A DNA stretch of 25,779 nucleotides. Source: a virus (taxonomy: Duplodnaviria > Caudoviricetes). The translations under genes were made by a program, and so were the position numbers. Each line of letters opens with the position of its first letter. The first letter of the stretch is position 1. The notes below the pieces were generated by a model. That model was not told the origin of the DNA. It worked only from the letters and a program-made list of their open reading frames with translations, and made no database searches. Of the stretch, positions 5,723 through 24,542 are shown in pieces. The stretch spans positions 1 through 25,779 of IMG/VR virus record IMGVR_UViG_3300016474_000048. One strand, 5' to 3'.

Positions 5723-5917
5723 TCACCACTTGCAGGACGGCTTGCTCACCGCACCACCCGTGGCCCGCCGCTGCGGCAGCCCCTTGGTTCCACGCATTCT
5801 ATCCGCCTTCTCGAAGTCCCGTCCAACGGATTGCGGGATCCCCGCCTTCTTCGCGAAGGCGGGGTCGTGCGCGACAGCCCGCATCAGGCGGGCCTGAGCC
5901 TTGGACCGGCTCGGCAT
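5723..5917 (-). CDS. Small basic phage protein, 64 aa (MPSRSKAQARLMRAVAH...)
   Basis: TGATG overlap with the upstream stop at 5917. Contains RATGGAV. Confidence 0.8.
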   Translation of the reverse strand: MPSRSKAQARLMRAVAHDPAFAKKAGIPQSVGRDFEKADRMRGTKGLPQRRATGGAVSKPSCKW

Positions 5918-6393
5918 CAGCACTTCCCGCCGCCGTACATCGGCTTCCCGCGATGCGACGGGACGCCGCCCCGGGCGAGCTTGGTCATCGGCTTGCCGGG
6001 GTGCATGGCAGCCTCATGCTTGTGGACGGCCCGCTTCACGAGCGCCTTGTCCTGCGCGAGGTCGGCCTTGCCGCCGTCCTTCATGCCGCCGGGGATCCGC
6101 GCCCGCGCCATCAGGTCAGGCATCCCCTTCGGCTTGCGACCGCCGGAGGGAGCAGCCGCCCGGGGTGGCTTCGCGGCGGCTGGCATCGGCGGCATGGGAG
6201 CCGGAGCGGGCGGCGGCGTGTAGCCGATGCCGTCCATGCTCTTCGCCGCGCTCAGGCCGCCCTTGGCCGCCTTCTTGACCCGGCCGCCGCCAGCGTAGAA
6301 CTGGACGAGCTTGCGGCCTTCGGGAGCGGAGCTGTCCTTGAAGCCGAAGTCGCTCGGGAACTTGAACTCGCCGTAGCGAAGCGTCTTGCCCAT
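5917..6393 (-). CDS. Basic, low-complexity protein with multiple xxxGG motifs, 158 aa
   Basis: ATG at 6393. Contains YAGGGRV, AAKGGL, MKDGGKA, LARGGV, MYGGGKC and a central Pro-rich tract. Confidence 0.8.
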   Translation of the reverse strand: MGKTLRYGEFKFPSDFGFKDSSAPEGRKLVQFYAGGGRVKKAAKGGLSAAKSMDGIGYTPPPAPAPMPPMPAAAKPPRAAAPSGGRKPKGMPDLMARARIPGGMKDGGKADLAQDKALVKRAVHKHEAAMHPGKPMTKLARGGVPSHRGKPMYGGGKC

Positions 6394-6395
6394 CG

Positions 6396-6551
6396 TTACC
6401 ACCCCTTCTTCATCGCCGAATAGGCGGATTTCGAGATCGTGGACTTGCTCTTCGGCCTGCTGTCGCCTTGGAGCTTCTGGATGTTGATGTTACGCACGAG
6501 CGACGGCTTCTGCGCCTTGAGCGCGCGGAGCTTCTCTGCCTTGGTCTTCAT
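6396..6551 (-). CDS. Small basic protein, 51 aa (MKTKAEKLRALKAQKPSLVRNINIQKLQGDSRPKSKSTISKSAYSAMKKGW)
   Basis: Manual translation, below the ORF-track cut-off. Fills the gap between neighbours with 1-2 nt spacing and has GC3-rich codons. Confidence 0.75.
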   Translation of the reverse strand: MKTKAEKLRALKAQKPSLVRNINIQKLQGDSRPKSKSTISKSAYSAMKKGW

Positions 6552-8001: not shown

Positions 8002-8916
8002 TCAGAGACCGGCGGTGCCGTAGAGGCAGCGCGGATCCGTCCAGCCCACGTCGTAGCGCTCGGTGGCCTTGTAGCGCATGGAGTCGGTCTCGAAGTCGCC
8101 CTCCATGCTCTTCTCCATCGAGCGGCGCTTGAGAACCTTCAGGCCCTCGGGCGCATCGGTGTTGATCCACCACGCCGTGGTGGAGGTGATGCGCGAGAGG
8201 TTCTTCTGGCCCTCGGACAGCAGCCCCATCGAATTGACGGGGTTGATGTCGTTGTTCGCCGTGCCCGTGCGGAGGACGCTCTTGAGGAGCACTTCCGCCT
8301 GAAACACGTTCGAGGGAGAGACGACGAGCGACTTCGGCTGGAGCCGGATGCGCTTGCCGTTGTTGTCCACCGCATTGCGGATCTGGATGAGCATCTGCTC
8401 CAGCGAGGTCTGCGACAGGTTCGCTGCCGTGGAGAGCTGGTTGGAGAAGGTGCCGCTCGTGATCGGATGCGAGGTGTTGATCAGCGACACGCCGTCGCCG
8501 CCGACGTAGCTGCCGTTGAAGGCGCGGTTCAGGATGTTCGCGCAGACCGTCTCCTTCGTCTCGATCAGCGACTGCGCGAGGTGCTTCGCGTAGGTCTGGC
8601 CGATGCGGATGTGGTCACCGTCCTCGACGAGCACCTTGGTCAGTGCGAAGGCGAGGCCGTAGACCTTGTAGACGTAGCGCTTGATGAACAGCACGCCACC
8701 CGACTGGTAGGTGACCGCCGTGCCATCCGGCAGCTCCGGCGCAGCGCCGAAGCCGTAGAGCACCGGCTCCTCGTGGTACTGGCGCGGGGTGCCATTGCCC
8801 TCCTTGAACACGCCCTTCCACTCGTCGGCGCGCTGATCGTACACGCCGTCGAAGGACTGCGAGATGATCGGCTCGACGATGGAGCGGAAGTCGGTTGCCC
8901 TCATGGGGACTGCCAT
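8002..8916 (-). CDS. Major capsid protein, 304 aa
   Basis: AAGGAG RBS. Motifs GFGAAPELPDG.AVTY, GGDGVSL..TSHP, PKSLVV.P, EGDFETDSMRYKATERYDVGWTDPR typical of this HK97-fold MCP family. Synteny after the scaffold. Confidence 0.92.
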   Translation of the reverse strand: MAVPMRATDFRSIVEPIISQSFDGVYDQRADEWKGVFKEGNGTPRQYHEEPVLYGFGAAPELPDGTAVTYQSGGVLFIKRYVYKVYGLAFALTKVLVEDGDHIRIGQTYAKHLAQSLIETKETVCANILNRAFNGSYVGGDGVSLINTSHPITSGTFSNQLSTAANLSQTSLEQMLIQIRNAVDNNGKRIRLQPKSLVVSPSNVFQAEVLLKSVLRTGTANNDINPVNSMGLLSEGQKNLSRITSTTAWWINTDAPEGLKVLKRRSMEKSMEGDFETDSMRYKATERYDVGWTDPRCLYGTAGL

Positions 8917-9558: not shown

Positions 9559-10107
9559 TCAGTCCTCGTCCGCGAACGTCGGGACGGGGACGGGTTTCCG
9601 CAGCTCCGAAATGCCGGATCCCTCGATCACGTCTGCACCCATGCCACGCGCTTGCTCGCGGATCGCGTCGGCAGTGGAGGTGAGCTTCTCGGCCTCCGAG
9701 AGCGGCGCGTTGTGATGCACCTCCAGCATGTACTTCTCGTACAGCGCCAGAGGGATCTTGAACGCGAGCATCTCGTTGACGCCGATGCAGCCCGCCCACT
9801 CGCCGGTCTTCATCGACGCATACTCCCAGCCGGGAACATCTTCCGGCTTCACGGGCGTGTAGCCCAGTCGGATGCGCGAATGGATCGAGTCGCGAGGGTT
9901 GGTCGTGGTCAGCCAGCAGAGGTGATAGCCCGGGATCTTCGGAAGATCGGGGAGTGCGGCTTGGATGAACTGGCTGCGAAAAGCCTCCAGACGTTCGTCG
10001 TCCGAGATCTCGCGCCGCTCCGTGACCGAGCGATCTTGCATCGCCCTGTTGGTGCGCGCGGGGTCAACGCTCTTCTTGAGCCGGTCGTCCTGATTGGTCG
10101 TCATCAT
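9559..10107 (-). CDS. Conserved head-module protein of unknown function, 182 aa
   Basis: AAGGAG RBS. LP.IPGYHLCW...R.RLGYTPV...IGVNEMLAFKIP pattern, between scaffold and capsid genes. Confidence 0.75.
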   Translation of the reverse strand: MMTTNQDDRLKKSVDPARTNRAMQDRSVTERREISDDERLEAFRSQFIQAALPDLPKIPGYHLCWLTTTNPRDSIHSRIRLGYTPVKPEDVPGWEYASMKTGEWAGCIGVNEMLAFKIPLALYEKYMLEVHHNAPLSEAEKLTSTADAIREQARGMGADVIEGSGISELRKPVPVPTFADED

Positions 10108-11131: not shown

Positions 11132-11620
11132 TCAGATGAAGGCCTTCACGGCGAGCGGATCGCCCGTGAACCGGCCCACGATGTCGAGGTCGTTGAACAC
11201 GACGAACAGCGCCTTCCCGGCGTCGCCCATCGGCACTTCCCAGCGGTCGCCGCCGTACTTCGGCACGCGCACGAACTCGCCCGGGTCGCACCAGATGCCC
11301 TCGGCCCACGGCTGCATCGTCTCGCGATTGCAGAACGCGAGCGGGCCGACTGCGCGCACGAGCGCGACCTGCGTGTTCCACTTCTCGGTGTCCTGCGTGT
11401 CCTCCGGCAGGATCAGGCCCGACTTCGTCTTCTTCATCGGGTTGCGGATCTGCACCACGACGCGCGAGCCATATGGCTCGAACATCGGGTTCACGTCGGG
11501 GAAGGCGAAGTCGTGGTCGCCGTTCCATGCGAAGCCCAGCCCGGGGCGTTGCTTCGCGTCGGCGACACTCGCCGACAGGGTTCGCGCAACACGCGCGACA
11601 GTCTTCAGCGCAGCCGTCAC
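11132..11620 (-). CDS. groES: GroES/Cpn10-like co-chaperonin
   Basis: FEPYGSRVVV...KKTKSGLILP...VRAVGP...GEFVRVPKYGG...FNDLDIVG matches the Cpn10 signature. GTG start overlaps the upstream stop; exact start uncertain. Confidence 0.85.
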   Translation of the reverse strand: MTAALKTVARVARTLSASVADAKQRPGLGFAWNGDHDFAFPDVNPMFEPYGSRVVVQIRNPMKKTKSGLILPEDTQDTEKWNTQVALVRAVGPLAFCNRETMQPWAEGIWCDPGEFVRVPKYGGDRWEVPMGDAGKALFVVFNDLDIVGRFTGDPLAVKAFI

Positions 11621-11829: not shown

Positions 11830-11946
11830 TCAGCAAGAGGCTTTCTTGCCGCCCTTCGCCGAGCCGCCCTTCGCCATCGCGGCGGGCTTCTTGCCCATCG
11901 CCATCTGCTTGTGCTGGGAGATCGGTCCCTTGCTCTTCGCCGCCAT
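11830..11946 (-). CDS. Tiny basic peptide, 38 aa (MAAKSKGPISQHKQMAMGKKPAAMAKGGSAKGGKKASC)
   Basis: Manual translation, below the track cut-off. Strong AAGGAG RBS, two AKGG motifs. Confidence 0.75.
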   Translation of the reverse strand: MAAKSKGPISQHKQMAMGKKPAAMAKGGSAKGGKKASC

Positions 11947-12178: not shown

Positions 12179-14644
12179 TCACGGTGATGGGTTGATGCCG
12201 GTGCCGGTCGAAACCGCCACCCTTTCTCCGCTGACGATCTCCAGAGCTGCGAGGTCGCGTGCGGTCTGGTTGTCGGCATCGTTCATGCCGACGCGCGCAT
12301 CGACCTCGAAGGTCGAGCGCTGGTTCTCCTGATCCTGCTTGAACTGCTCGGCCTGCATCTTGGCCGCGCGGTCCTTCTCGCGGTCGGCGATGCGCGCCGC
12401 GTCAAGCTGCGCCTTCGCCTGATCGGCCTGCGCCTTGCGCGCAGTCTCGGCCTGCGAAGCCTGCGCCGCGAGGATGGTCGGATCCTGCGGCATCTGCGGC
12501 TGCATCGACTGGATGTACTGCATCGCCTGCGCGATGATCGGAGGAAGACCCGCGAGAGCCTGCTGGCCTTCGGCGATGACGCGCGACGACGCGGTCGCGA
12601 GCAGGATGTCCATCTCGCGCGACACGTCGTCGTCCTTGTCCATCAGCTCCGAGATGTCGGTGCCGGTTGCCGTACTGGTAACCTCGAAGACATGGCTCGC
12701 ATACCAGAGCGTGACGTGATCCTTGATGTGTTCGAGGATCGCCGGGACGAAGCGCGGAGCGATGATCGGGCTGCCGCCGAAGACCGGCGACTGCATGAAG
12801 TCGAGATGCACCTGTATGTGCGCGAGGTGCTCCTGCTCGGGGAACGCGACCACCGGCCGCCCCATCGTCGCGGCGACGTTCTCGTTCACCGCGTTCATCT
12901 TCTTCGGCTCCTGCTTGTCCAGCAGGAGCTTCTCGCTCTCGGGGATCTTCAGCCGACGCAGCAGCAGCTCCTCGACCTTGCGGATATCGTAGAGCTGCGG
13001 CAGCGCCGCCGCGCGCGCGACCACGGCTTGGATCTGCGCGAAGCGCTGCGTCTCGGAGAAGATGTTCGGATCGGAGACCGGGATCACGTCCACCGGCCCC
13101 TCGTAGTCGGCGCGCCGCACGATCAGCTCGCCGTCCTCCTCCACCAGCACCTTCTCGTCGAGGTACATGCGGTTGAGGCGATGCAGCACTTCGAGCGTGC
13201 GCTGCATGGCGACGTGCAGGCGCGAGTGGATCGCGGAGAACACCGTCATGCCCTGCTCGATCAGGGCGAGCGTGGTGCCGACCGGCATGTTCGGGTTCGC
13301 GCCGTCCGACAGGTTCTCGAACGTCGTCCGCACGACGCCGCGACCCGACTCAAGCAGGAAGCCGAGCAGCTTGAACAGCACCTCGCTCGGCGGGTTGAAC
13401 GGGACCGGCATGGCGAGCTTGCGAACGTCGTCCACGTTCAGGCCGCCCTCGATCTCCGTCACGCCAGTCGCGGTGAGGTTCAGCGACTGGCCGCCAGCCG
13501 TGCCGCCCTTCAGCTTCAGCAGCGTCGGGAAGTTCTGGATGTGGGCGCTGTCGAGCAGCGCGCGCAGCGCGCCGGTAGCGGCACCGGAGAGGCCGCCGAT
13601 CATGTGCGGCAGCCCGATGGGGTATGCCCCGCGCCACGGGACGAACGGCCACTCGACGATGTGCGTCAGCTCCTCGCGCAGCTCGTCTTCCTCGTCCCAG
13701 TTGCGATACACCGACAGGACATCCTCGGTCGCCTTGTCGATGGTGATGATGTACGGGCACGGCGCGCCGTCGTCGTTGTCCTCGATGTCGAGGTGCGCGT
13801 AGATCTCGAAGATCGTGCGAAGCCCGTCGCTGTTGTAGGGATCCGCCTCGCGGCCCTCGATCTTGTCGTTCGCCTTCTGCGACTTCGACTCCTCGGGCAG
13901 CGGCGGGTCGGGCGGGAGATCCACGTCGCGATACATGCCCGCGCGCACGCGGCTCTCGTACTCCTGCCGCGTGATGTACTGGACGTGCGTCTTGCGCTCG
14001 GCCGAGTAGAAGCTCGTCGCGGCGAAGGGGATGTACACGTCGTCGATGGGGACGAAGAGCGTTGTCGGGCGCTTGCGCCGCTTGTCCCAGAACAGCTTCA
14101 GGTACTGGCCGCCGCCCAGCGGGAGCTGCGTCAGGAGCTGCTCCAGCTCCGGCCGAAACTCCTTCATGGAGACCGTGAGCTGGCGGTTCATGTGCTTGGT
14201 CTTGCGCTGCGCCTTGTCGAGCTTCTCCTGCGTGACCTCGCCGGGGATGAAGTCCTTCACCGGCCCGGTCGGCGGGAACAGCTCCTTCATCGCGCGCGCG
14301 GCGAAGTCCACGCAGGCCTCGGTCAGCATCGGATGCACGACGCGGCTCGCGCCCTCGAACTGCGCGCCGCCGGGCGCATCGTCGCCCAGCCCCGTGCGCC
14401 GCAGGCCCTCCTCGTACTGCTCGTCGCGCTTCTTGCGCGCCTGCTTGTCGCGCTCGACGTGCTCCAGCAGCGACGTGGCGGCCTCTCGCAGGACCGTGGG
14501 ATCGAGCACCTCGACGAGGTTGTCGTAGAACTCCCCCTCGCCCTCTCCCGGGCCGTCGTCGAGCGTGACGATTGCGCCGCCGTCGTCCGTGTCGCGGATC
14601 TCGGCGTCGTCTTCGATCTCGAAGCTCTCGTCCTGTTCGGCCAT
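12179..14644 (-). CDS. Portal protein, 821 aa
   Basis: FEGASRVVHPMLTEACVDF.ARA..ELFP..GPVK, PVGTTLALIEQG..VFSAIH.RLH, VIPVSDPNIFS, C-terminal Gln/Ala-rich coiled coil (P22-like barrel). Position after terL. Confidence 0.9.
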   Translation of the reverse strand: MAEQDESFEIEDDAEIRDTDDGGAIVTLDDGPGEGEGEFYDNLVEVLDPTVLREAATSLLEHVERDKQARKKRDEQYEEGLRRTGLGDDAPGGAQFEGASRVVHPMLTEACVDFAARAMKELFPPTGPVKDFIPGEVTQEKLDKAQRKTKHMNRQLTVSMKEFRPELEQLLTQLPLGGGQYLKLFWDKRRKRPTTLFVPIDDVYIPFAATSFYSAERKTHVQYITRQEYESRVRAGMYRDVDLPPDPPLPEESKSQKANDKIEGREADPYNSDGLRTIFEIYAHLDIEDNDDGAPCPYIITIDKATEDVLSVYRNWDEEDELREELTHIVEWPFVPWRGAYPIGLPHMIGGLSGAATGALRALLDSAHIQNFPTLLKLKGGTAGGQSLNLTATGVTEIEGGLNVDDVRKLAMPVPFNPPSEVLFKLLGFLLESGRGVVRTTFENLSDGANPNMPVGTTLALIEQGMTVFSAIHSRLHVAMQRTLEVLHRLNRMYLDEKVLVEEDGELIVRRADYEGPVDVIPVSDPNIFSETQRFAQIQAVVARAAALPQLYDIRKVEELLLRRLKIPESEKLLLDKQEPKKMNAVNENVAATMGRPVVAFPEQEHLAHIQVHLDFMQSPVFGGSPIIAPRFVPAILEHIKDHVTLWYASHVFEVTSTATGTDISELMDKDDDVSREMDILLATASSRVIAEGQQALAGLPPIIAQAMQYIQSMQPQMPQDPTILAAQASQAETARKAQADQAKAQLDAARIADREKDRAAKMQAEQFKQDQENQRSTFEVDARVGMNDADNQTARDLAALEIVSGERVAVSTGTGINPSP

Positions 14645-14697: not shown

Positions 14698-17600
14698 TCA
14701 GGAGATCTGGCCCGCGTCCACGGCGGCCTCGGCGGCGTTTCCAAGCCCCGCCGCTGCCGCTGCCGCTGCCGCTGCCGCGTCTGCCTCGGGATCGCCAGTG
14801 CCCGGTCCAGAGGCACCGCCACGAGACTGGCTTGTCCCCGCGATGGCGTTATCCACAAAGGAATCGTTGAGAGACGTGCCGAACAAGCCGAAGCTGAGAT
14901 TGTTTCCGATGCCGGACATCACTTGCGATGCGGTCAGGCCGGGGAAGGCGTAGCCGGGGTTCGCCGCCCGCGCCGCATCGAGAGCTGCGTCGTACTCGCG
15001 CGCTTCGAGCGCGGTTCCAAGAGCCGTGCCTGCGAGGCCGAGGCCGGGGATCCCGGTGAACATGGATCCGAGCTGCCCCATGACGCCGAGCGCTCGTCCC
15101 GCGCTCATGCCGGGGACGGAGACGCTGCGCGTGTCCACGGTGGCTTGACCCGCTCCTCCCGGCGTCCCGGCGCTGCCCGGCGTGAAGCTCGACAGGCCAG
15201 AGGCGATGGCGGTGTCGGCCTGCTGCTGCGGCGTAGGCCACGAGTACTCCATCGCCGGAGACGACGCGCGCCAGCCATCGCTCATCGCCTGCGGCCTCAT
15301 GCCGTAAGTCAGCATGTCGTCGCTCACCGCGCCGCCCTCGGCGTAGCGGTTCACGATCTCGATGGGCGCGTCGTCGAACATGACGATGTTGCGGGTGCCA
15401 GTTCCAGCGGCACGAGATCCTGCATCGAGGTAGCGAATGCCGGGAACGCCTGCCTCGCGGAGGACATTCGTCGCTTTGATCCTGCCGGGCTTTGTAGCCC
15501 AGTTGGAATTGGGGTTGTCGGAAAGTTTCTTTGCAAGCTCAAAATACTCATCCAACCCAGTCGGCGTCCTGATCGGCATCTCCAGCCGACTTGAATCTCT
15601 CCAGATCGCATCCTTGAGGTAGTGGTCGAACACCTGTCGTGCCTCTTGCGGCTGCTCTGTCCACCACCCGTCTTCGGTTATGAACTTCTCTTTTGGAACG
15701 TGAAGATTGACATCGTACATGTAGGCCTTCGGCTCGATCAGATCACCGCCGCTCCAGTCGATCTTGAACTGCTTGTTCTTCAGCGCATCGATTGAATACC
15801 GGATGTCGCGCAGCCAGTCTTCGCTCGCGTCTGGGCGAGCGTACAGGCTGTCGTCGAGCGCACGGATTGCGGCAGCCTCGTCTCCGCCGTAGCTCTTGAG
15901 TGCGTTCTCTATGAATTGAGCCTGCCGTTCGGTCGCGCCAGACGGCAGCGAAATACGCATGACCGTCGGTGTAAACTGCGGCTCCGCCATCTCTTCAAAC
16001 GACCTCTTGTAGCTCTTCGCCACGTCTGGGTTCTCCGCGAAGTACAGCCCGTGACCGTAGACCTGAGCGCCTTCGCCGGTCCCGATCTTGCCCATGTCGA
16101 ACTCGTCGAACTTGTGCGGCGAGCCGTGATAGGCGCGCAGCGGTGACTGGACACGCACGAGCGAACCGCGTCGGAAGCGCGCGAGGCCGCCCTCATCGAC
16201 TTCGCCGCCATCGGCGTAGCCCCAGCGCTGCCTGACGACATCGTCGAACGACTTCAGGATCTCGTCCGTCGCGCCCGGCGTCGTGAAGGGCTTGCCGTCC
16301 ACGGTCCAGAGCGTCGTGTTCGGATCGAACTGCGTCCAGACCTTGCCGCGTCCGACGCGATCCAGAAGGCGTTCCGTCAGGATCGGCGAGAGGTTGTTCG
16401 CAAGCACGAGCTGGTTCGCGCGTGTCTCGAACGCGGGATCGGCGAGCTGCGCGCGCCGGAAGAAGTCGGGGTCGTTCGCCAGATCCCAGTTGATCTGCTG
16501 CTTCAAGCCGAAGCGATGCGCCGACTTCGCGAGGTCCGGCCGCGTGAAGATGAGCGAGCGCGACGAAGTGTCGGGGAACGTCCCCTCGATCCCGTGCAAG
16601 TTCGCGTGGTCGCCGATGTCGCGGCCGATGAACGACGACATGTCGAAGTCTGGGTTCGACGGGATCGCGGCCGTGTTCGGGTGCGTGTGCATCGTGACGC
16701 CGAAGCCGTGCGGGCCGGGGGCGTGATACGGATCGACATGCAGCGCGGACGGGTGCTGGAGCATCGTGCCAGCGTTGGGGCGCGGCTTGATCAGGTCGAT
16801 CTCGTGCGGGCCGCCGGACAACACGTTGCTCGCGAACACCGGGACGTTGCGCGGGTCGCTCGCGACGGAGAGCGCGACCGGATCGGGCGCGGAGAAGAAG
16901 CCGTGCTCGATGTTCTTGTTGATCGTGTCCTGCGCCGCGCTCGACCATGTGTGCTTCGTGCCGGGGATCGAGTAGTCGATGGCGTCGAACACCTCGTTGA
17001 TGTCGCTCGGCAGCGGGACGTTCCTGATGTCCCGCTCGGTGGACGCGCGTTCGAGGCTCTCCGCGACCTTCTTCGCCTCCTGACGCGAGAGCTGCCCACC
17101 GGGGCGGACCTTGCCGCCGCGCTGGTATCCCTCCATGCCGAACGAGGCGTAGATCTTCGCCATCACGCTCTCGGGCGCGGTGTTGGGATTGATCACGATC
17201 CCCGCGTCCTCCGGCTGGTCCGCGATCTCCTGATCGCGCATGAGCGCGTTCTCGTCTTGCAGCTCGCGCATCATGCGCTGGAGCGCGGCGTCGTCGGCCT
17301 CGACCTCGCCGCCATCGGCGTACCTGAAGTCGCTCTTGCTTCCGTATGTCACGTCGCGGCCGACGACCAGAGGACCGACTTGCACGACCTCTTCAGCGCG
17401 CGTGACCGGCTGCATCGTGGTGCGGTCGTAGAAGTAGCCGTGGCGCTCTGGGTCCATCCCGATCTGCTTCCAGCGCGACGGCTCTTCGAGGGCCTGCTTC
17501 ATGCGCGCGAGCGCCTCTTCGTCGCTCATCGGGTTCCACTCACCGCGCATGACCGCGAACGGAGACTTCGCTCCACCGGCGGCAACATCCAGCGCCTTGC

Positions 17601-18036
17601 CCTCTGGCACGATCATGGCGACGTTGTTCGCGGAAGACGTGGACGAGTACGCGGTCGGCTGCTTTGTCTGCGGACGATGCACGGAGTTCACCCACGCGCC
17701 GCTGCCGGTGTACGCAGGGATGTCGAGCCGCAGCTCGGTGCGCTCGCCAGCCGGGATGTTGGCGGTCGCTCCGTACTGAGCGCGCTTCGGCTCTGACAGG
17801 GCGGCCAGCGCGTCCTCGCGCGATGTCGGCATGGGCGCGCTCGCGTAAGGCTCGACCGGCTTGTAGGCACTGACGAGCGCGTCGTACTCCTCGCGCGTCA
17901 GCGTGCCGTCGCGCAGCTTCTGGGCCGCGTTCGTGAGCTGCGGCACGCGCTCCGTCACGTCCTTGTGCGACATGCCGAGGCGAGATCCTGCCTGCGAGAG
18001 CGGGCCGCTCGTGCGGCGAAGGGAGCGCTGGGACAT
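14698..18036 (-). CDS. Multidomain (polyvalent) protein, 1112 aa: unknown domain, JAB/JAMM domain, ART-like domain, Gly/Ala-rich membrane-like tail
   Basis: Start reassigned to MSQRSL at 18036. Contains HTHPNTAAIPSNPD (HxHx7SxxD) and YHGSPHKFDEF...GHGLYFAE. Linkers YADGGEV, YQRGGKV, YADGGEV, YAEGGAV. Confidence 0.85.
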   Translation of the reverse strand: MSQRSLRRTSGPLSQAGSRLGMSHKDVTERVPQLTNAAQKLRDGTLTREEYDALVSAYKPVEPYASAPMPTSREDALAALSEPKRAQYGATANIPAGERTELRLDIPAYTGSGAWVNSVHRPQTKQPTAYSSTSSANNVAMIVPEGKALDVAAGGAKSPFAVMRGEWNPMSDEEALARMKQALEEPSRWKQIGMDPERHGYFYDRTTMQPVTRAEEVVQVGPLVVGRDVTYGSKSDFRYADGGEVEADDAALQRMMRELQDENALMRDQEIADQPEDAGIVINPNTAPESVMAKIYASFGMEGYQRGGKVRPGGQLSRQEAKKVAESLERASTERDIRNVPLPSDINEVFDAIDYSIPGTKHTWSSAAQDTINKNIEHGFFSAPDPVALSVASDPRNVPVFASNVLSGGPHEIDLIKPRPNAGTMLQHPSALHVDPYHAPGPHGFGVTMHTHPNTAAIPSNPDFDMSSFIGRDIGDHANLHGIEGTFPDTSSRSLIFTRPDLAKSAHRFGLKQQINWDLANDPDFFRRAQLADPAFETRANQLVLANNLSPILTERLLDRVGRGKVWTQFDPNTTLWTVDGKPFTTPGATDEILKSFDDVVRQRWGYADGGEVDEGGLARFRRGSLVRVQSPLRAYHGSPHKFDEFDMGKIGTGEGAQVYGHGLYFAENPDVAKSYKRSFEEMAEPQFTPTVMRISLPSGATERQAQFIENALKSYGGDEAAAIRALDDSLYARPDASEDWLRDIRYSIDALKNKQFKIDWSGGDLIEPKAYMYDVNLHVPKEKFITEDGWWTEQPQEARQVFDHYLKDAIWRDSSRLEMPIRTPTGLDEYFELAKKLSDNPNSNWATKPGRIKATNVLREAGVPGIRYLDAGSRAAGTGTRNIVMFDDAPIEIVNRYAEGGAVSDDMLTYGMRPQAMSDGWRASSPAMEYSWPTPQQQADTAIASGLSSFTPGSAGTPGGAGQATVDTRSVSVPGMSAGRALGVMGQLGSMFTGIPGLGLAGTALGTALEAREYDAALDAARAANPGYAFPGLTASQVMSGIGNNLSFGLFGTSLNDSFVDNAIAGTSQSRGGASGPGTGDPEADAAAAAAAAAAGLGNAAEAAVDAGQIS
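14750..14778. repeat. Hexamer microsatellite (GCCGCT)x4.8 encoding poly-Ala
   Basis: Directly visible; encodes the 10-Ala run near the C-terminus of the 1112-aa protein. Confidence 0.9.
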
Positions 18037-18043
18037 GTCGATC

Positions 18044-19492
18044 TCACGCTGCGTATGGGTTGAGCTTCGGCTTCGGCGGCGGCGCTGCCTCTTCGGGGCG
18101 GCGCTTGAAGCCGGTGGCGGACAGGAGGTTGCGGTCGGCGAACAGACGCCACGCCTGCGTCGTCGCATCGACGAAGTCGTCGTGCTTCGTCGAGCCTTCG
18201 CCAGTGAACACGCAGAGCTGGGCGAGCAGCGGCTCGGCCCATGTGCGCGGCGCGCCCGAGATCTTCTGGCTCTCAGGCAGCCACACGAGGCCGTTCGCCG
18301 GTAGGTGCGAGACCGCGTGCAGGCGCGAGAGCTTGTCCGCGTTCCCCGGGTTGTAGGCGTGCGCCAGCACGCCCTCGCGCTCCAACATCTGCCGCAGCGA
18401 GATGCCGCTGCCCTTGTCCTCGATCAGCAGCAGATCGACCTTCTTGCCGCTGTTGCGGACGAGCGCCGGTCCGAACAGCGGCTTGATCATCGGCACGTCC
18501 ACCTCGCCGTACTCGACCTCCAGCTCCTTCCGCACGCGCGTGATCAGGTCCGGCATCGAGAGCCAGTCCTGCCAGCAGTCGAGCAGCATCACGCTCGGCC
18601 GCTTCTCGTGCTCGAACACACCCCACACGGTGCAGGCTGTCGGGTCGCCCTCGCCGGTCTTCTTGTCGCGCGTGCGCTCGGTGAACGCGGTGTCGAGCGA
18701 CATCAGAACGAACGAGAGTTTCGGCAGCGGCTTGTTCGCGGGCCACAAGCGGAACCACGTCCGCTTGATGATGCCGCTCTCCTCTGGATCGATCAGCTCG
18801 CCGTAGATCTCCTGCCGCCCGAGCTGCGTGCCCTCGTACTTCACGAGCTGGTCGAAGAACGTCGGCGCGAGGTTCGCCTTGTTCTCGTAGGTGGTGCCGC
18901 GCGTGATCACGCAGCGCTTGTCCTTCACCAGATCCTGCACGAGCGGGATCGGTCGCGGCGTCGTCGTGAAGCACACGCGCGGGCGCTGGCCGAGGCGCAG
19001 GCCCATCATCAGCATGTCCCACGTCTCCTGCGCGCGCTGCCACGCGGCCAGCTCGTCGCACCACGCGCGATGGCACTGCGGGCCGCGCAGTCGGTCGGGC
19101 TTCTCCGCCGAGAACGCGCGGATCGTCGCGTCGTTGTAGAGCGTCAGGATCAGGTCCGAGCGGTTGTAGTCCTTCACCAGCTCGTGCGGGACGGTCGCGA
19201 GCAGTCCCGCCGGACCCTCGAAGCAGACGTGCTGCGCGTCGCTCCACGTCGGCGCGACGACGTGGCTGATGCTCTTCGGATCCGCGAGCGCTTCGCTCGC
19301 GACCCAGTTCGCGCCGCTGAAGGTCTTGCCGAAGCCGCGCCCCGCCATGATGCCCCAGATGAGCCAGTCGCCCGGCGGCTCGGTCTGGTTCGCGCGCGCA
19401 CGCTCTAGGAACGCGAGCCGCCAGCGCACGACGCGGAGCTGCTCGACCGAGAGCTTCTCCAGCACCTTCGGGTCGAGATCACCGAGCGGCAC
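18044..19492 (-). CDS. terL: Terminase large subunit, 482 aa
   Basis: Walker A AGRGFGKT, LRGPQ, Walker B AWCDE, coupling motif TTTP, nuclease SLDTA...IEDKGSG...HDDFVDA. Confidence 0.96.
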   Translation of the reverse strand: MPLGDLDPKVLEKLSVEQLRVVRWRLAFLERARANQTEPPGDWLIWGIMAGRGFGKTFSGANWVASEALADPKSISHVVAPTWSDAQHVCFEGPAGLLATVPHELVKDYNRSDLILTLYNDATIRAFSAEKPDRLRGPQCHRAWCDELAAWQRAQETWDMLMMGLRLGQRPRVCFTTTPRPIPLVQDLVKDKRCVITRGTTYENKANLAPTFFDQLVKYEGTQLGRQEIYGELIDPEESGIIKRTWFRLWPANKPLPKLSFVLMSLDTAFTERTRDKKTGEGDPTACTVWGVFEHEKRPSVMLLDCWQDWLSMPDLITRVRKELEVEYGEVDVPMIKPLFGPALVRNSGKKVDLLLIEDKGSGISLRQMLEREGVLAHAYNPGNADKLSRLHAVSHLPANGLVWLPESQKISGAPRTWAEPLLAQLCVFTGEGSTKHDDFVDATTQAWRLFADRNLLSATGFKRRPEEAAPPPKPKLNPYAA

Positions 19493-22400
19493 GGCTCTTC
19501 ATCTGCCTGAGCGCGCCGCGCGCCCTGCCTCCGCGTTTGAACGTCGGGGTGTCGCTCATCACGGCGTAGGGCATCCCGGTGTAGCGCTCCATCTCGATGT
19601 CGAACGGAGAGCGCTCGCGCGGATAGCCGAGCTGCACGCCGCCTTGGTTCGCCATCGGATCGAGGTCGCCGTAGTGGCCCGCGCTCGGCGGGATCACCAC
19701 GTCGAAGCCCTGCGGCATCGGCAGGGGCTGCGGGATCGACTGCGCCGCAGCCGACGCGACCTCGCCGCTCTCGGGCACCGGCATCGGAGCCGCTGGCTCC
19801 TGACGCGCAGGCGCAGTTGCGGGCGCAGCGGGGCGGCGCGCCGGTTCGTCCTTGAGCTGCGTGCCGTACTTCTTGCCGCGCCACCAGAACGTCTGCTCGC
19901 CGCCCGAGAGCGCACGCTGGCGCGCGAGGCGGAAGGCGCGGCCGAACGACATGTTGCTGTAGTTGGCAAGCTCGACGGGTCCGCCGTCGGCCTTCTTCAC
20001 CTCGTCCTTCGGCTCCGCCTTCTTCTTCGACTTCTCGGTCGAGGCCCACTCCGGCATCAGGCCGAGCTTCTGGTCCGCGTAGATCGTGTCCGCGCCGCTG
20101 GCCTTCGCGTTATGCTCCGCGTTCGGCCCGAAGTTCAGGTAGCTGTTCTGGCCGCGAAGCTCGACGGCGGCAGCGGGCCGCGCGTCGGGCGAGTACATCG
20201 GCGCATGGTTCAGCCACGCGCGCTCTTCGCCCTTGTGGCGGAAGAACGGGTTGCCCGGGCCGAAGTGACCGAAGGCATCATGCACGACGCGGAAGGCATC
20301 GTTCACGACTGCGTTGTCCTTGTCGCCGAGCCTGCCGATGGGCGTCAGCAGCGGATGCTTGAACGTCGAGAGCAGCTCGGCGTTCGCGTCCGTCGTGCCG
20401 AAGCCGAAGTCGGTCGGATAGGTGTAGAGCCGGTTGTTCTCGACGATGTCGGCGTAGCCCAGCGCGGGCGAGCGCGCGTAGGGATCCTCCATGCCCGGCT
20501 TCAGGAAGCGAATGTCGAGACCGCTGTCCTTGATCTTGTCGAGCTGCGCCATCGTCTCGTCTGCGAGCGCCTGATACGAGCGCTGCACGCGCGGATCGCC
20601 GGGATCGTGCTTCATCTCGTCGTATGCGCGAGAGAGCCTGCGCGCGAGTTCTTCGTCGAACTCTGGATACTCGCGGATGACGTGCTCGCCCGGGCGACCG
20701 ACCGACTGCATGTAGCGCGCAGCGGCGTCTTCGAGTTCTGGGATCGGCAGCGTCTCGACGCGACCGATGGTCGGGATCTCGACCGTCGCAGGCTTGCCGG
20801 GCACGCTCTTGTATCCCGTTCCCTCGCCGACGCGGCGCGGCCTGCCACGCCCCATCATCACGAGCGCGCCCGTGCGCGGATTGACGGGACCGCCGTCAGC
20901 GAAGCCATCGATCTTCTTCGGGCCGTCGAGTACCTCGTATGGCAGATCGCCGCTCGCGCGCGTCTTTTCGCTGGTGAAGCGCGCGGGCTGGTCTACGTCT
21001 CCGCCAGAAGCGTAGCCAACCATTCCACCATGAGACTTGGTGATGTCGTTGCTCTTGGGATTGAATTCACCGCTATTCCCGATGGCGGACTTCAACTGAC
21101 TTGGATTAAAAACAATTGTCTCAAGTCCTTCGCCGGTTTCCGGGTTAAACTTTACGTCAGAATAATCGTTGATATGGAAAATTCCATCATATCCAGCATC
21201 TTTCATCTTCTTCACATCATCAGGATGCAAAGTCATCGGCCAGTCATAGGACTTGGCACCAAACTCCTTCCTTAGCTCTTCCTTGCCCTCTTTGTCGCTA
21301 TTAGTAACGTAAAGAGGGTTTTCGATCTTCACATAGAGGGGCATGACATTTGCCCCTTCCCTGAATTCCCCCCTTCGCATGACATTGTGTGCCGCTGGCT
21401 GGCTATGCTTGTGCGGTGTCAGCCAGATGGCAGGGCCGGAAAGGCTCGGGTCATGGCCCCCCGGAATGAACTCGGAGAAGTGCTTTGAGGTCACATGGTA
21501 ATGCACCCACGGCTTGCCCTCTCCGTCGATTGCCCTGCTGTTGCCGAACCAGTTTCGGAAGTTCTCAGGCGAGGCAGCCTCGCGTGTCATCGGCGGAGCT
21601 TTCCCCGCGTCTGTCTTGCCCGCAATCCGAGCCGCGAAGCGCAGGAGCGCACCCGTGCGAGGGTTGACGGGACCACCATCGGCATATCCATCGACCATGC
21701 CGCCGTCCGCGTGTCCCGTCATTGCCTCCATGCCGGTGCCGAGCGCGGTGCCGAAGCCCGTGCCCATCAAGACGTTCCTGCCGAACTCCGGCCTGATTAC
21801 CGGCAAGAAGAACTCGGCCGCCGCGTTGCCAACTGCCCCCGCGCCGCTTGCTGCTGCGCGGACCGCGTCAGCCGCCCTGCCCTGACCAAGTGCGTCGTTC
21901 GCCGCCTGCTTGAGCGCTCCGATGCGAGGGCCAGCGAAGCGCACGCCATCGGAGACGCGCTTGGCAACGCCGAGAGGCAACATCGGCACCTGTCCGATCA
22001 TCGTGCCCAGAGCAGCGCCCGCGTGCTCGATGGGGCCGCTCGGCGGCTTGATGCCCATCTCGCTGTTGATCGCCGCGCGCAGCTTCTCCATGTGCTCGTT
22101 CGCATCGTTCGCGAACTGCGGCACGAACGCTTCGCCGCCGGGGATCATCCCGACCAGCGTCGGCGTCGATGCCACGTCGTAGAGGATCCCCGGCGTCTTG
22201 CCAGCGTTCCACCACACGACCGGGTTGCCGTCGTCGTCGAACGCGGAGTACTGCGCGCGCATCCCGGCCGCAGCCTGATCGAGGAAGCGCCGCGCCGCGC
22301 TGCCGCCCTGCTCCCGGCGTCGTGCGATGTCGCGGTCGTACTGCGCGCGATCAGAGGCGATGCGTTCATCGGCCTCGCGCTTGAAGCGCTCGCTGTCCTT

Positions 22401-24542
22401 CTCGACCTTGCCGCCGTCGTCGTAGCGCATCGCGTTCATGAGATCCTCGTGCGTCGTCGTCGTTCCGCTCGTCGCATCCCACACGCCGTGATGCGTGAGG
22501 TGCTGGTACATCGGATCGAAGCGCGACGGCATCGACACGCCGAGCACGCGCTGGCGCTCGTTCAGGCGATGCACGGCCTCGTCTCCACCAGTGACCGGCA
22601 GGCTCTCTCCACGCGAGAAGTACTTGCTGCTCGTGTCGTCGGGCGTGTGCAGCTTGAGCTGGCGCGCGTCGAGCGTCGCGTTGTCGCCGCGCCCGAGCAT
22701 CGACGACATGAAGCCGCTCTTCGCCGCGTCGATGTTCTTCACGCGCTTCATGAAGTCGCGCCACTCCTGCGGATCGCTCATGCCGTAGGACGAGCGCGCG
22801 ACGAGGTCGGAGATCTCGCCCGCAGCGTCGGGCATGTAGCGCGCGCCGTAGGCGAGCTGCTCGCCGAGCTTGTTGTAGTTGCCGAACGGCTTCATGACGC
22901 GCACGGCGTCCTCGATGGCGTAGCGGTCCTGCAATCCGCGCACGGCCGCGTCGAGGTAGCGCTGGCCCATCGGCGTGACGAGCCAGTCGGCGAACGCGCC
23001 CTCGGGGCGGATCTTCCGATCAGGGCTGGAGAGCGGCAGCCCGAGGTCTTCGAGCTTCTTGCGGTTGATCGCCTGCCGCTGCATCGACGACACGGTGATG
23101 CCATACGCCTTCGCGACATCGCGCGGCGAGAGGCCCTCGGTGTCGGCGCGCTTCGCCTGATCGATCATGAAGTCGCCGAACGGCACGACGTGCTGCGGCA
23201 GCTCGAACTCGCCTCTCGCGTTCTGCGGAAGCGCGCCCGGCTGCGCGAGATCCTCGCGCACGTCTTCGAGCGGACGCCACTTCCAGTCGTCGATCTTGTT
23301 CGACGGCGGGTCGGCGTATGCGTTGCGCTTCACGTTGCCGCCGCGCTTGAAGCGCTTGAGCACGTCGTTCACGTCGCCGACCTTCTTCGTCGCGTCGATG
23401 TAGTCGCCGAGCTGGTCGATGGCTTGCTGGTCGAGGACGCGCTGCGGGATCTTTTCGCTGATCGCGGACGACATGCCGAAGGAGCGGTGATCCGTCCCCG
23501 TTGGCTTCTTTTGCGCGCGCCGTTCCTGATACCACGGCTCGAACAGCAGCGACCTCGGGATCGGAACCTCGAAGCCGCCGTAGTACGGATCCCTGCGCGT
23601 TGGCGGCACGCCCTTCGCGATCTCGTGCGAGTAGTCGGGATGCGGCAGCTTCGTCTCGCTCGTCTCGCGCAGCGGCTTCCTAGGATCGATGCCGATCAGG
23701 AGCTGGCCGCCGTACATCTCGTTCGGCATCGCGAGCGGACGCAGCAGCGGATCGGAGAGCGCGTAGCGCGCCTCGGCGATGTTGGGGAAGCCAGCGTCGT
23801 AGTACGACACCATGTCCATGTGCTTGTACAAGCCGTCGCGATTGCCCGGCCGCTTCATCCACTCGTCGAGCGCTGCCTTGTCCTTGAAGCCCGGGAAGCT
23901 GGCCCACTCGGCCTCGCCCTTCGGGTTCTTCGCCTTCCGCAAGTTCTCCTCGAACTTCCGCAGCTCGTCGGCGCTGATCGTCGAGCGCGCCATCATGTCG
24001 TCCACGAGGCCGCGCATCATCGTCGTGCGGTCAACGGACTTCGGGTTCATCGTCATGAACACGCCGGTCACCGGCTTGCCGGTCTTGTTCATGATGTTGA
24101 GCGCGCCCGTGCGGATGCCCTCGGCCTGCGCCATCGCGTTCGCCCACGCGCCGTGGTTCGCGCCGAGCGGATAGTCGAACCCGCCGTCGAGGCGCAGCAG
24201 GCTCGCTGGCTGTTCGCCTGCGAGCGCCTTGAGCGTGCCGACCGCGCTCGTGTCGCCGACGAGCGGGATCGCGACGGTGTTCTGGATCTTGCCGAGGTCA
24301 CCGGTCGTCAGCGTCTTCCTCGGCTTGAACTCATCGCCGCGCTCGACGACGTTGCGCCCCGGGGTGCGCGTGCGCTCGAACTCATCCTCGGAGATCACGC
24401 GGTTCGACCACGGCAGATCGCGATTGCCGGTGCGCTCGTTCTGCTGGAGCTTGTCTTCGAGTTCGCGCTGGATCGTGCCCGGCGGAAACTGCGGCTGCTG
24501 CGACGGCGCGCGGCTTCCGATCTTCAGTCCACGACCCGCCAT
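19479..24542 (-). CDS. Giant multidomain (polyvalent) protein, 1687 aa: unknown domain, HhH-GPD-like, hydrophobic module, ART-PolyVal-like, HDxxGH domain, short C-terminal motif
   Basis: AAGGAG upstream of the ATG. NFRNWFGNS...GKP..HYH.T...YDGI...ETIVFNPSQLKSAIGNSGEF is ART-PolyVal-like. Nine xxxGG linker motifs. Confidence 0.88.
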   Translation of the reverse strand: MAGRGLKIGSRAPSQQPQFPPGTIQRELEDKLQQNERTGNRDLPWSNRVISEDEFERTRTPGRNVVERGDEFKPRKTLTTGDLGKIQNTVAIPLVGDTSAVGTLKALAGEQPASLLRLDGGFDYPLGANHGAWANAMAQAEGIRTGALNIMNKTGKPVTGVFMTMNPKSVDRTTMMRGLVDDMMARSTISADELRKFEENLRKAKNPKGEAEWASFPGFKDKAALDEWMKRPGNRDGLYKHMDMVSYYDAGFPNIAEARYALSDPLLRPLAMPNEMYGGQLLIGIDPRKPLRETSETKLPHPDYSHEIAKGVPPTRRDPYYGGFEVPIPRSLLFEPWYQERRAQKKPTGTDHRSFGMSSAISEKIPQRVLDQQAIDQLGDYIDATKKVGDVNDVLKRFKRGGNVKRNAYADPPSNKIDDWKWRPLEDVREDLAQPGALPQNARGEFELPQHVVPFGDFMIDQAKRADTEGLSPRDVAKAYGITVSSMQRQAINRKKLEDLGLPLSSPDRKIRPEGAFADWLVTPMGQRYLDAAVRGLQDRYAIEDAVRVMKPFGNYNKLGEQLAYGARYMPDAAGEISDLVARSSYGMSDPQEWRDFMKRVKNIDAAKSGFMSSMLGRGDNATLDARQLKLHTPDDTSSKYFSRGESLPVTGGDEAVHRLNERQRVLGVSMPSRFDPMYQHLTHHGVWDATSGTTTTHEDLMNAMRYDDGGKVEKDSERFKREADERIASDRAQYDRDIARRREQGGSAARRFLDQAAAGMRAQYSAFDDDGNPVVWWNAGKTPGILYDVASTPTLVGMIPGGEAFVPQFANDANEHMEKLRAAINSEMGIKPPSGPIEHAGAALGTMIGQVPMLPLGVAKRVSDGVRFAGPRIGALKQAANDALGQGRAADAVRAAASGAGAVGNAAAEFFLPVIRPEFGRNVLMGTGFGTALGTGMEAMTGHADGGMVDGYADGGPVNPRTGALLRFAARIAGKTDAGKAPPMTREAASPENFRNWFGNSRAIDGEGKPWVHYHVTSKHFSEFIPGGHDPSLSGPAIWLTPHKHSQPAAHNVMRRGEFREGANVMPLYVKIENPLYVTNSDKEGKEELRKEFGAKSYDWPMTLHPDDVKKMKDAGYDGIFHINDYSDVKFNPETGEGLETIVFNPSQLKSAIGNSGEFNPKSNDITKSHGGMVGYASGGDVDQPARFTSEKTRASGDLPYEVLDGPKKIDGFADGGPVNPRTGALVMMGRGRPRRVGEGTGYKSVPGKPATVEIPTIGRVETLPIPELEDAAARYMQSVGRPGEHVIREYPEFDEELARRLSRAYDEMKHDPGDPRVQRSYQALADETMAQLDKIKDSGLDIRFLKPGMEDPYARSPALGYADIVENNRLYTYPTDFGFGTTDANAELLSTFKHPLLTPIGRLGDKDNAVVNDAFRVVHDAFGHFGPGNPFFRHKGEERAWLNHAPMYSPDARPAAAVELRGQNSYLNFGPNAEHNAKASGADTIYADQKLGLMPEWASTEKSKKKAEPKDEVKKADGGPVELANYSNMSFGRAFRLARQRALSGGEQTFWWRGKKYGTQLKDEPARRPAAPATAPARQEPAAPMPVPESGEVASAAAQSIPQPLPMPQGFDVVIPPSAGHYGDLDPMANQGGVQLGYPRERSPFDIEMERYTGMPYAVMSDTPTFKRGGRARGALRQMKSRAAR
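20862..21692 (-). repeat. Pair of 48-nt diverged direct repeats (20862-20909 and 21645-21692) encoding DG[YF]ADGGPVNPRTGAL
   Basis: 15/16 aa identical; 39/48 nt identical, with mismatches almost all at third codon positions. Confidence 0.9.

Follow-up and report, generated by a model that had tools for sequence, protein, structure and literature searches.

The two giant proteins encoded in the head-packaging block of this phage contig are strings of modules joined by a seven-residue Gly-Gly motif. Comparison with homologues shows that the motif bounds the modules and, as read from the sequence junctions, is the crossover point at which they are lost, inserted and exchanged. We tentatively propose, with a probability of about 0.4, that the motif is a portable tag with which cargo proteins dock in the phage particle, to be loaded there and later ejected with the DNA.

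Two polyvalent proteins with a Gly-Gly motif at their joints

The window, by which we mean the whole stretch of 25,779 bases under analysis, is a whole virus contig, itself a genome fragment, and is read here on the minus strand; it breaks off inside a tail gene, before the ejection genes. Along the minus strand the order is terS, the gene for giant protein 1 (1687 aa; 19479..24542), the gene for the terminase large subunit (terL; 18044..19492), the gene for giant protein 2 (1112 aa; 14698..18036, a start backed by homologues with the same first residue), the portal gene (12179..14644) and a GroES-like gene. These are followed by a scaffold-like gene, two conserved genes without assigned function, the major capsid gene (8002..8916), small genes, an adaptor-like gene and then tail genes up to the contig limit. 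The GroES-like gene of the head block (window 11132-11620) is common to the whole group. Among database records, Caulobacter phage RW and its kin (RW capsid 82% and portal 57% identical) come nearest, together with MW202545, CRP-901/902, HTVC023P/027P, DSL-LC04 and Pag-Yong1. The earlier note, made from the sequence alone, had likened the giants to phage polyvalent proteins. That they are such proteins, in a head-packaging block, is borne out by the order terS-giant 1-terL-giant 2-portal and by the ART-PolyVal domain, whose scores of 62.9 bits in giant 1 and 33.6 bits in giant 2 exceed the curated cut-off of 31.2 and hence make both of them polyvalent proteins in the sense of PMC5512222; each chain combines several unrelated, separately distributed modules.

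All 13 motif copies listed in that note are present, in frame and on the minus strand: nine in giant 1 (at 23351, 22424, 21713, 21686, 21038, 21014, 20903, 19994 and 19541) and four in giant 2 (at 17322, 17127, 16218 and 15345). With the pattern proposed there, giant 1 holds 9 copies where 0.37 are expected (at most 3 in 2000 shuffles) and giant 2 holds 4 against 0.19 (again at most 3 in shuffles); the 15 other proteins of the window give 2 matches in total. Since this pattern had been fitted to the same 13 copies, other proteins were used for an independent matrix, trained solely on 149 of them (one near-identical match left out). The matrix recovers 12 of the 13 copies, missing the one at aa 1169, together with 2 in small proteins of the window, with 0.6 expected. 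The terminase large subunit has no motif copy and the portal protein no matrix match. The capsid protein has one look-alike below the matrix threshold (Tyr-x-x-Gly-Gly at aa 70, window 8709), which is retained in close relatives and may be coincidence or mimicry. The resulting consensus is [YFKR]-A-x-G-G-x-V. Its Gly codons differ among the 13 copies and its aromatic, Ala, GG and Val positions are constant; this variation in codons places the signal at the protein level, and we accordingly judged a DNA-level site unlikely as the motif's function.

Searches with aa 398-1520 of giant 1 as query returned 8818 representatives at 50% clustering. Among the best 150 of these 8818, 132 have at least one loose copy and 91 have three or more, and the 149 that remain after exclusion of the near-identical one hold 516 copies against 64.5 in shuffles. 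The last GG lies fewer than 30 residues from the protein end in 63 of the 131 motif-bearing homologues and fewer than 10 in 18 of them. A helix-like word follows the motif in 85 of 449 copies and precedes it in 20 of 449.

The copies divide giant 1 into intervals of 397, 309, 237, 9, 216, 8, 37, 303, 151 and 20 aa, and giant 2 into intervals of 238, 65, 303, 291 and 215 aa. The earlier note had placed them at the junctions of 200-400-aa modules. Homology upholds the borders, but the spacing is uneven, with intervals of 8, 9, 20, 37 and 65 aa; some segments, namely the doublets, the short spacers and the tails rich in Gly, Ala and Pro, may lack a domain fold.

The giant 1 module at aa 398-706 (22425..23351) starts at copy 23351 and is also found as stand-alone proteins with the motif at their end; it gave no Pfam match over the cut-off and no convincing PDB match. 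This module of ~300 aa is widespread and has many invariant residues (Asp, Arg, Gln, paired His) but no family, and we take their pattern to be reminiscent of helix-hairpin-helix glycosylases. The next module, at aa 707-943 (21714..22424), starts at copy 22424, is Gly/Ala-rich and has few homologues. Beyond it lies an indel cassette (aa 953-1213; 20904..21686) with ART-PolyVal at aa 1006-1160 and the doublet 21038/21014. A 53-nt direct repeat (family D8), which encodes the motif and its leader, is present at 21642..21694 and, 81% identical, at 20859..20911. GC content is lowest for the region in the kilobase with this cassette (window 20900-21900), at 0.585 where about 0.67 is usual, as would be consistent with the cassette having been acquired recently. 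The module at aa 1214-1516 (19995..20903) is zincin-like by pattern only, zincin-like MPTase domains being frequent but not universal in polyvalent proteins: it has an invariant H-D-x-x-G-H (aa 1421-1426) followed by a Glu at aa 1439, gave neither a Pfam nor a PDB match, and also occurs stand-alone, without the motif, in other phages (L093, L094, L097). The H-D-x-x-G-H pattern resembles an HExxxH zincin variant described for polyvalent proteins in the available part of PMC5512222. A Pro/Ala-rich tail (aa 1517-1687; 19479..19994) carries the last copy (19541), 20 residues from the C-terminus. Giant 2 consists of module 1 (aa 1-238; 17323..18036), a module at aa 304-606 (16219..17127) with a weak Prok-JAB match (E 0.038, under the cut-off), and an ART-PolyVal module at aa 607-897 (15346..16218; Pfam match at aa 631-709).

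Modules are lost, inserted and exchanged at the motif

That the giant genes are arrays of cassettes with the motif as the cassette border, as the earlier note had supposed, is corroborated by close relatives. In one whose portal is 100% identical (L001), exactly aa 953-1213 of giant 1, i.e., the ART cassette, is missing, and within the 53-nt repeat the junction sequence changes over from copy 1 to copy 2. The same loss is seen in two further relatives (P0146 and L089). As the longest exact match between the diverged repeat copies is only about 11 nt, we judged assembly collapse unlikely as the source of the deletion. In giant 2, one relative (P0008) has a module inserted and the ART module exchanged, and two others (P0007/P0010) have another module in place of module 1; in each case the sequence rejoins at the motif. 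Module 1 and the ART module are also found singly as genes of their own with the motif at the end (L091 and L090, respectively), stopping a few residues past the copy, and further homologues have the same modules in different orders (P0018, P0024).

Across the wider set, homology coverage by the 149 proteins falls at the motif copies. Local blocks longer than 100 aa, 188 in number although representing only about four modules, end at most 25 aa from a copy in 174 cases (23% expected) and cross one in 15. The module borders are here set by homology, not by structure models of the giants. Repeat families spanning motif copies have 71-92% DNA identity.

The replacement of module 1 (P0007, P0008, P0010) and the module at aa 304-606 are distant paralogues that share M-H-T-H-P and a weak JAB-like match. 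The second ART-PolyVal module (15346-16218) has a middle that is hypervariable among otherwise 90-100% identical relatives (L001, L002, P0003-P0017), with breakpoints within the module, away from the motif.

The motif on small proteins and in related genomes

Outside the region covered by the earlier note, the motif is found in three short ORFs of the window, with 161, 66 and 38 aa, and in part lies just 2-10 residues before the stop. The 161-aa basic protein (5917..6402, minus strand) has up to four motif-like copies, the last one two residues from the stop. The 66-aa basic protein (5723..5923, minus strand), the N-terminal part of which matches PHROGs labelled virion structural protein, and the 38-aa basic ORF (11830..11946, minus strand) each have one copy near the C-terminus. 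Copies in the 161-aa and 66-aa proteins are retained in three relatives (L411-L413). In a survey of 80 portal relatives, covering loci over 9 kb, most of the longer loci are without giants and have small motif-bearing genes past the capsid gene.

We further scanned the named genomes (as 50-kb stretches) and five near-complete IMG/VR genomes, using our own gene calls. Copies fall mostly in terminase-portal inserts, in small basic genes and in the last late genes, often about 12-21 residues from the C-terminus; proteins marked in this way near the C-terminus include likely ejection proteins. One 449-aa protein has 7 matrix matches. Matches per genome number 1, 12, 3, 6, 2, 3, 0, 7, 14, 7 and 9, with 0.3-1.0 expected; Caulobacter phage RW has 3, HTVC023P 0 and G004 1, and the count is 0 in CRP-901, 1 in QDWS535, 0 in MW202796, and 1 each in G013 and G014. 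The tag is common in the group, not universal, and the few or no matches in RW, HTVC023P, G004 and CRP-901 indicate that it is dispensable for this head type.

An element of ejection-position proteins and tape measures beside the motif

In the relatives, the first ejection-position protein ends in an element, here termed GEFV, which motif copies flank in proteins of the clade. In Caulobacter phage RW, the C-terminal 90 aa of gp066c have a copy at each end and match tape measure families in PHROGs. Against the PDB, this C-terminus recovers the Douge tape measure (E 5e-10) and JBD30 (E 0.24); lambda was not matched in this search to E 1, and the link to lambda therefore depends on the common pattern and on alignments in which lambda is included. 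The GEFV match of RW and one profile match to lambda arise by construction. Of 24 records searched, 10 have the element, including all 9 portal relatives that are at least 72% complete; CRP-901 is among those in which it was not found. A dozen extra genes lie between the portal and GroES genes of CRP-901 (L082 35261-45129), without the motif and without the element, and this phage may use a different signal. GEFV was likewise not found in the giants, where profile matches cover motif flanks only; an apparent match on giant 1 was rejected as an artefact of such flanks within the profile.

GEFV keeps an Asp and a Glu. Where it is doubled, copy 1 keeps the Asp and only copy 2 keeps the Glu in 111 of 120 proteins of one lineage, and a second lineage has the same split in three loci; such a division would fit one composite site of a dimer, either catalytic or binding. 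The monomer model is of low confidence (pLDDT 61), and its best structural match, at Z 2.6, is uninformative in either direction. Stand-alone small proteins composed of two GEFV-type elements are encoded at L419:18330-19055 and in L448 and L452, the gene in L419 adjoining a motif-rich gene of 834 aa. Ten of 11 GEFV-bearing genomes have 1-14 matrix matches against 0-1 in 5 genomes without it, in statistics that ignore phylogeny; crAss001 has 2 matrix matches and no detected GEFV element.

Two proteins known from phage particles carry the motif. In lambda gpH, copies at 733 and 778 lie on either side of the GEFV element. In crAss001 gp45, a cargo protein by mass spectrometry and cryo-EM (PMC10172136, available part), copies lie at 260, 329, 559 and 825, and the modelled portal-bound piece (425-552) begins, by our count, inside a degenerate copy, Ala425-Phe-Gly-Gly, and continues through its GG, as would suit a copy left uncut. 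The possibility that this portal-bound domain is a GEFV homologue was unsupported (profile probability under 1%, both alignments being shallow), as was an ESM Atlas lead to the crAss cargo domain PF25725 (score 0.84) upon profile comparison and HMM search. For JBD30, the available text of PMC11445458 predicts that segment 1022-1066 is a hook anchoring the tape measure during ejection and reports no peptidase motif in it. In the available parts of two further reports, either only the far C-terminus is resolved or fragmentation is remarked upon (PMC13033339, PMC11661146).

Docking, cutting and other readings of the motif

If the motif is a docking tag, cargo proteins would use it to bind a partner within the particle during assembly, and the docked cargo would be packed and then ejected with the DNA. 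Every cargo gene would encode a tag close to its end; tags would come to lie at the joints whenever cargo genes fuse, additional copies would add avidity, and the DNA of the tag and its leader would offer microhomology for the gain and loss of cassettes. The leading candidate for the partner is the GEFV element in which the first ejection-position protein ends, and the portal is another. We infer that the giants are such cargo, with the tag bound by the partner. Docking is favoured over cutting by the 63 of 131 proteins with under 30 residues past the last GG, by the doublets and arrays that the copies form, by the passage of the gp45 model through a GG, and by the finding that no protease travels with the motif. 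Against docking stand the scarcity or lack of the tag in RW, HTVC023P and CRP-901, the presence of the motif in siphophage tape measures, which are tail proteins for which capsid loading is not needed, the cutting of lambda gpH near its copies, and the 0.2-1.0 matrix matches per genome that fall by chance in unrelated genes. The earlier note had offered a cleavage site or a loading tag as the motif's function; the second of these fits the spread of the motif, but for the first many copies would yield no useful product.

Somewhat less probable, though the strongest of the rivals, is that a protease recognizes the motif and cuts the giants, as polyproteins, into effectors at maturation or after ejection, the enzyme possibly being a GEFV dimer or a host peptidase. 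According to the available text of PMC12617516, which describes site and catalyst as unknown, a C-terminal piece of ~14 kDa is cut from lambda gpH in a glycine-rich region. A cut at the first gpH copy would leave 12.2-12.3 kDa, which is short of the reported ~14 kDa, and that paper puts the cut in the glycine-rich region. The flanking of GEFV by copies in both lambda and the clade proteins speaks for cutting, as does the Asp/Glu split, which is what a composite dimer site would lead one to expect. The tendency of motif and element to co-occur, in phylogenetically non-independent genomes, points the same way, but the low-confidence GEFV model goes with no detected protease signature. Segments that follow the motif can look like native N-termini, but they resemble leaders only weakly (12 of 18 N-termini and 28 of 92 segments past the motif). 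Phage prohead proteases are known to have repeat sites at close spacing (PMC5694885, available part). Cutting at many of the present copies would free only 2-20 residues, and the doublets are 8-9 aa apart. The start of the gp45 model at 425 could reflect a cut just before it.

A protease was not found among the 19 and 17 window proteins scanned, the contig being a fragment, and the capsid protein matches protease-capsid fusion profiles over their later part only. None of the 11 GEFV-bearing genomes has the zincin-like module of giant 1 in its available sequence, whereas G013 and G014, both with chance-level motif counts, do have it, a distribution that rules it out as a group-wide cutter, though action in cis is conceivable. 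A conserved 182-aa gene (window 9559-10107), with 1751 homologues, separates the scaffold-like gene from the capsid gene. Its product is modelled with confidence (pLDDT 80) and gave no Foldseek match in the PDB at E 0.001 and no named ESM Atlas neighbour. Docking and cutting are compatible readings, as the T4 targeting sequence serves loading and is itself cut (PMC5694885, available part).

It is unlikely that a single Gly-Gly code serves podophage ejection and cargo proteins, crassvirus cargo and siphophage tape measures alike, being read and perhaps cut by a GEFV dimer with a composite Asp/Glu site. We regard as improbable a role at infection instead of assembly, in which the motif would act by self-pairing or channel-threading to set the order of protein exit, or would be recognized by a factor of the host. 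The motif is common to tape measures and podophage cargo, both of which traverse the tail, and the proposed ejection hook of JBD30 (segment 1022-1066; PMC11445458, available part) would suit such a role; the hook is itself a prediction, however, and concerns the GEFV element, which is absent from both giants. The least probable reading is that of a neutral hinge or recombination scar, spread via copying of gene ends and kept for in-frame module exchange, which the L001 crossover within a motif-coding repeat and the DNA identity of the repeat families would suit, but which sits poorly with retention of the motif at extreme C-termini and in 38-66-aa proteins without need for a hinge, with fixed aromatic, Ala, GG and Val residues under varying synonymous codons, and with its occurrence in both crAss001 and lambda despite their very different DNA.

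Relation to known systems and significance

The polyproteins pp220 and pp62 of ASFV are cut at Gly-Gly-X and adenovirus proteins at (M/I/L)xGG-X, in both of these eukaryotic viruses by a dedicated cysteine protease. A Gly-Gly core in a repeated site is common to these systems and to the present motif. The adenovirus parallel drawn by the earlier note nevertheless fails in register by one position, the bulky or basic residue lying three positions before the first Gly here and two in the quoted adenovirus site.

Like the giants, previously described polyvalent proteins are multi-domain, with ART-PolyVal, and are encoded among portal-terminase genes (PMC5512222). The available part of that paper predicts that they are packed and possibly processed; it names MPTase domains as likely processing enzymes and gives no junction motif, and the word 'linker' occurs 0 times in its main text. 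The giants, in contrast, have one joint motif, which is also found on non-polyvalent proteins. The same aromatic-Ala-x-Gly-Gly word stands beside GEFV in the C-terminus of lambda gpH, in Douge gp16 (8zdo) and in JBD30 gp46 (8rk3). These tape measures belong to the tail and have one or two elements, whereas the giants carry the word without the GEFV element. Another likeness is offered by crAss001 gp45, a demonstrated podophage cargo in which four copies are clear and copies delimit the portal-bound piece; it is treated as a single chain through the portal, cleavage going unmentioned in the available text of PMC10172136. The T4 capsid targeting sequence and the SPN3US gp245 motif are likewise short loading peptides on internal head proteins and are linked to proteolysis, being N-terminal propeptides removed by the prohead protease (PMC5694885, available part). 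The T4-type signal is a single N-terminal propeptide of 10-20 residues, whereas the present motif is internal or C-terminal and multi-copy.

Polyvalent proteins and loading signals are thus known kinds. The description of the motif is new as far as found: none turned up in a literature search covering titles, the starts of abstracts and mainly open papers, supplements excluded. This window newly shows that very close relatives gain and lose cassettes at the motif, supplies motif counts for 150 distant homologues, and rules out the zincin-like module built into giant 1 as a general cutter.

These results bear on how podophages choose their cargo and on whether polyvalent proteins are cut into effectors. 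The motif lets domain borders be read directly in the 8818 matches (50% clustering), a very large unannotated set, and it gives exact testable residues in lambda, crAss001, Caulobacter phage RW, HTVC027P and Pag-Yong1. For lambda gpH, whose cleavage site is given as unmapped in a paper of 2025 (PMC12617516, available part), it suggests where the cut may lie. A portable loading tag would be the podophage counterpart of the T4 capsid targeting sequence. If GEFV reads or cuts the motif, the element would represent a phage protease or peptide reader of a kind not yet described, able to free the effector domains of polyvalent proteins, and this would account for the unmapped cleavage of lambda gpH.
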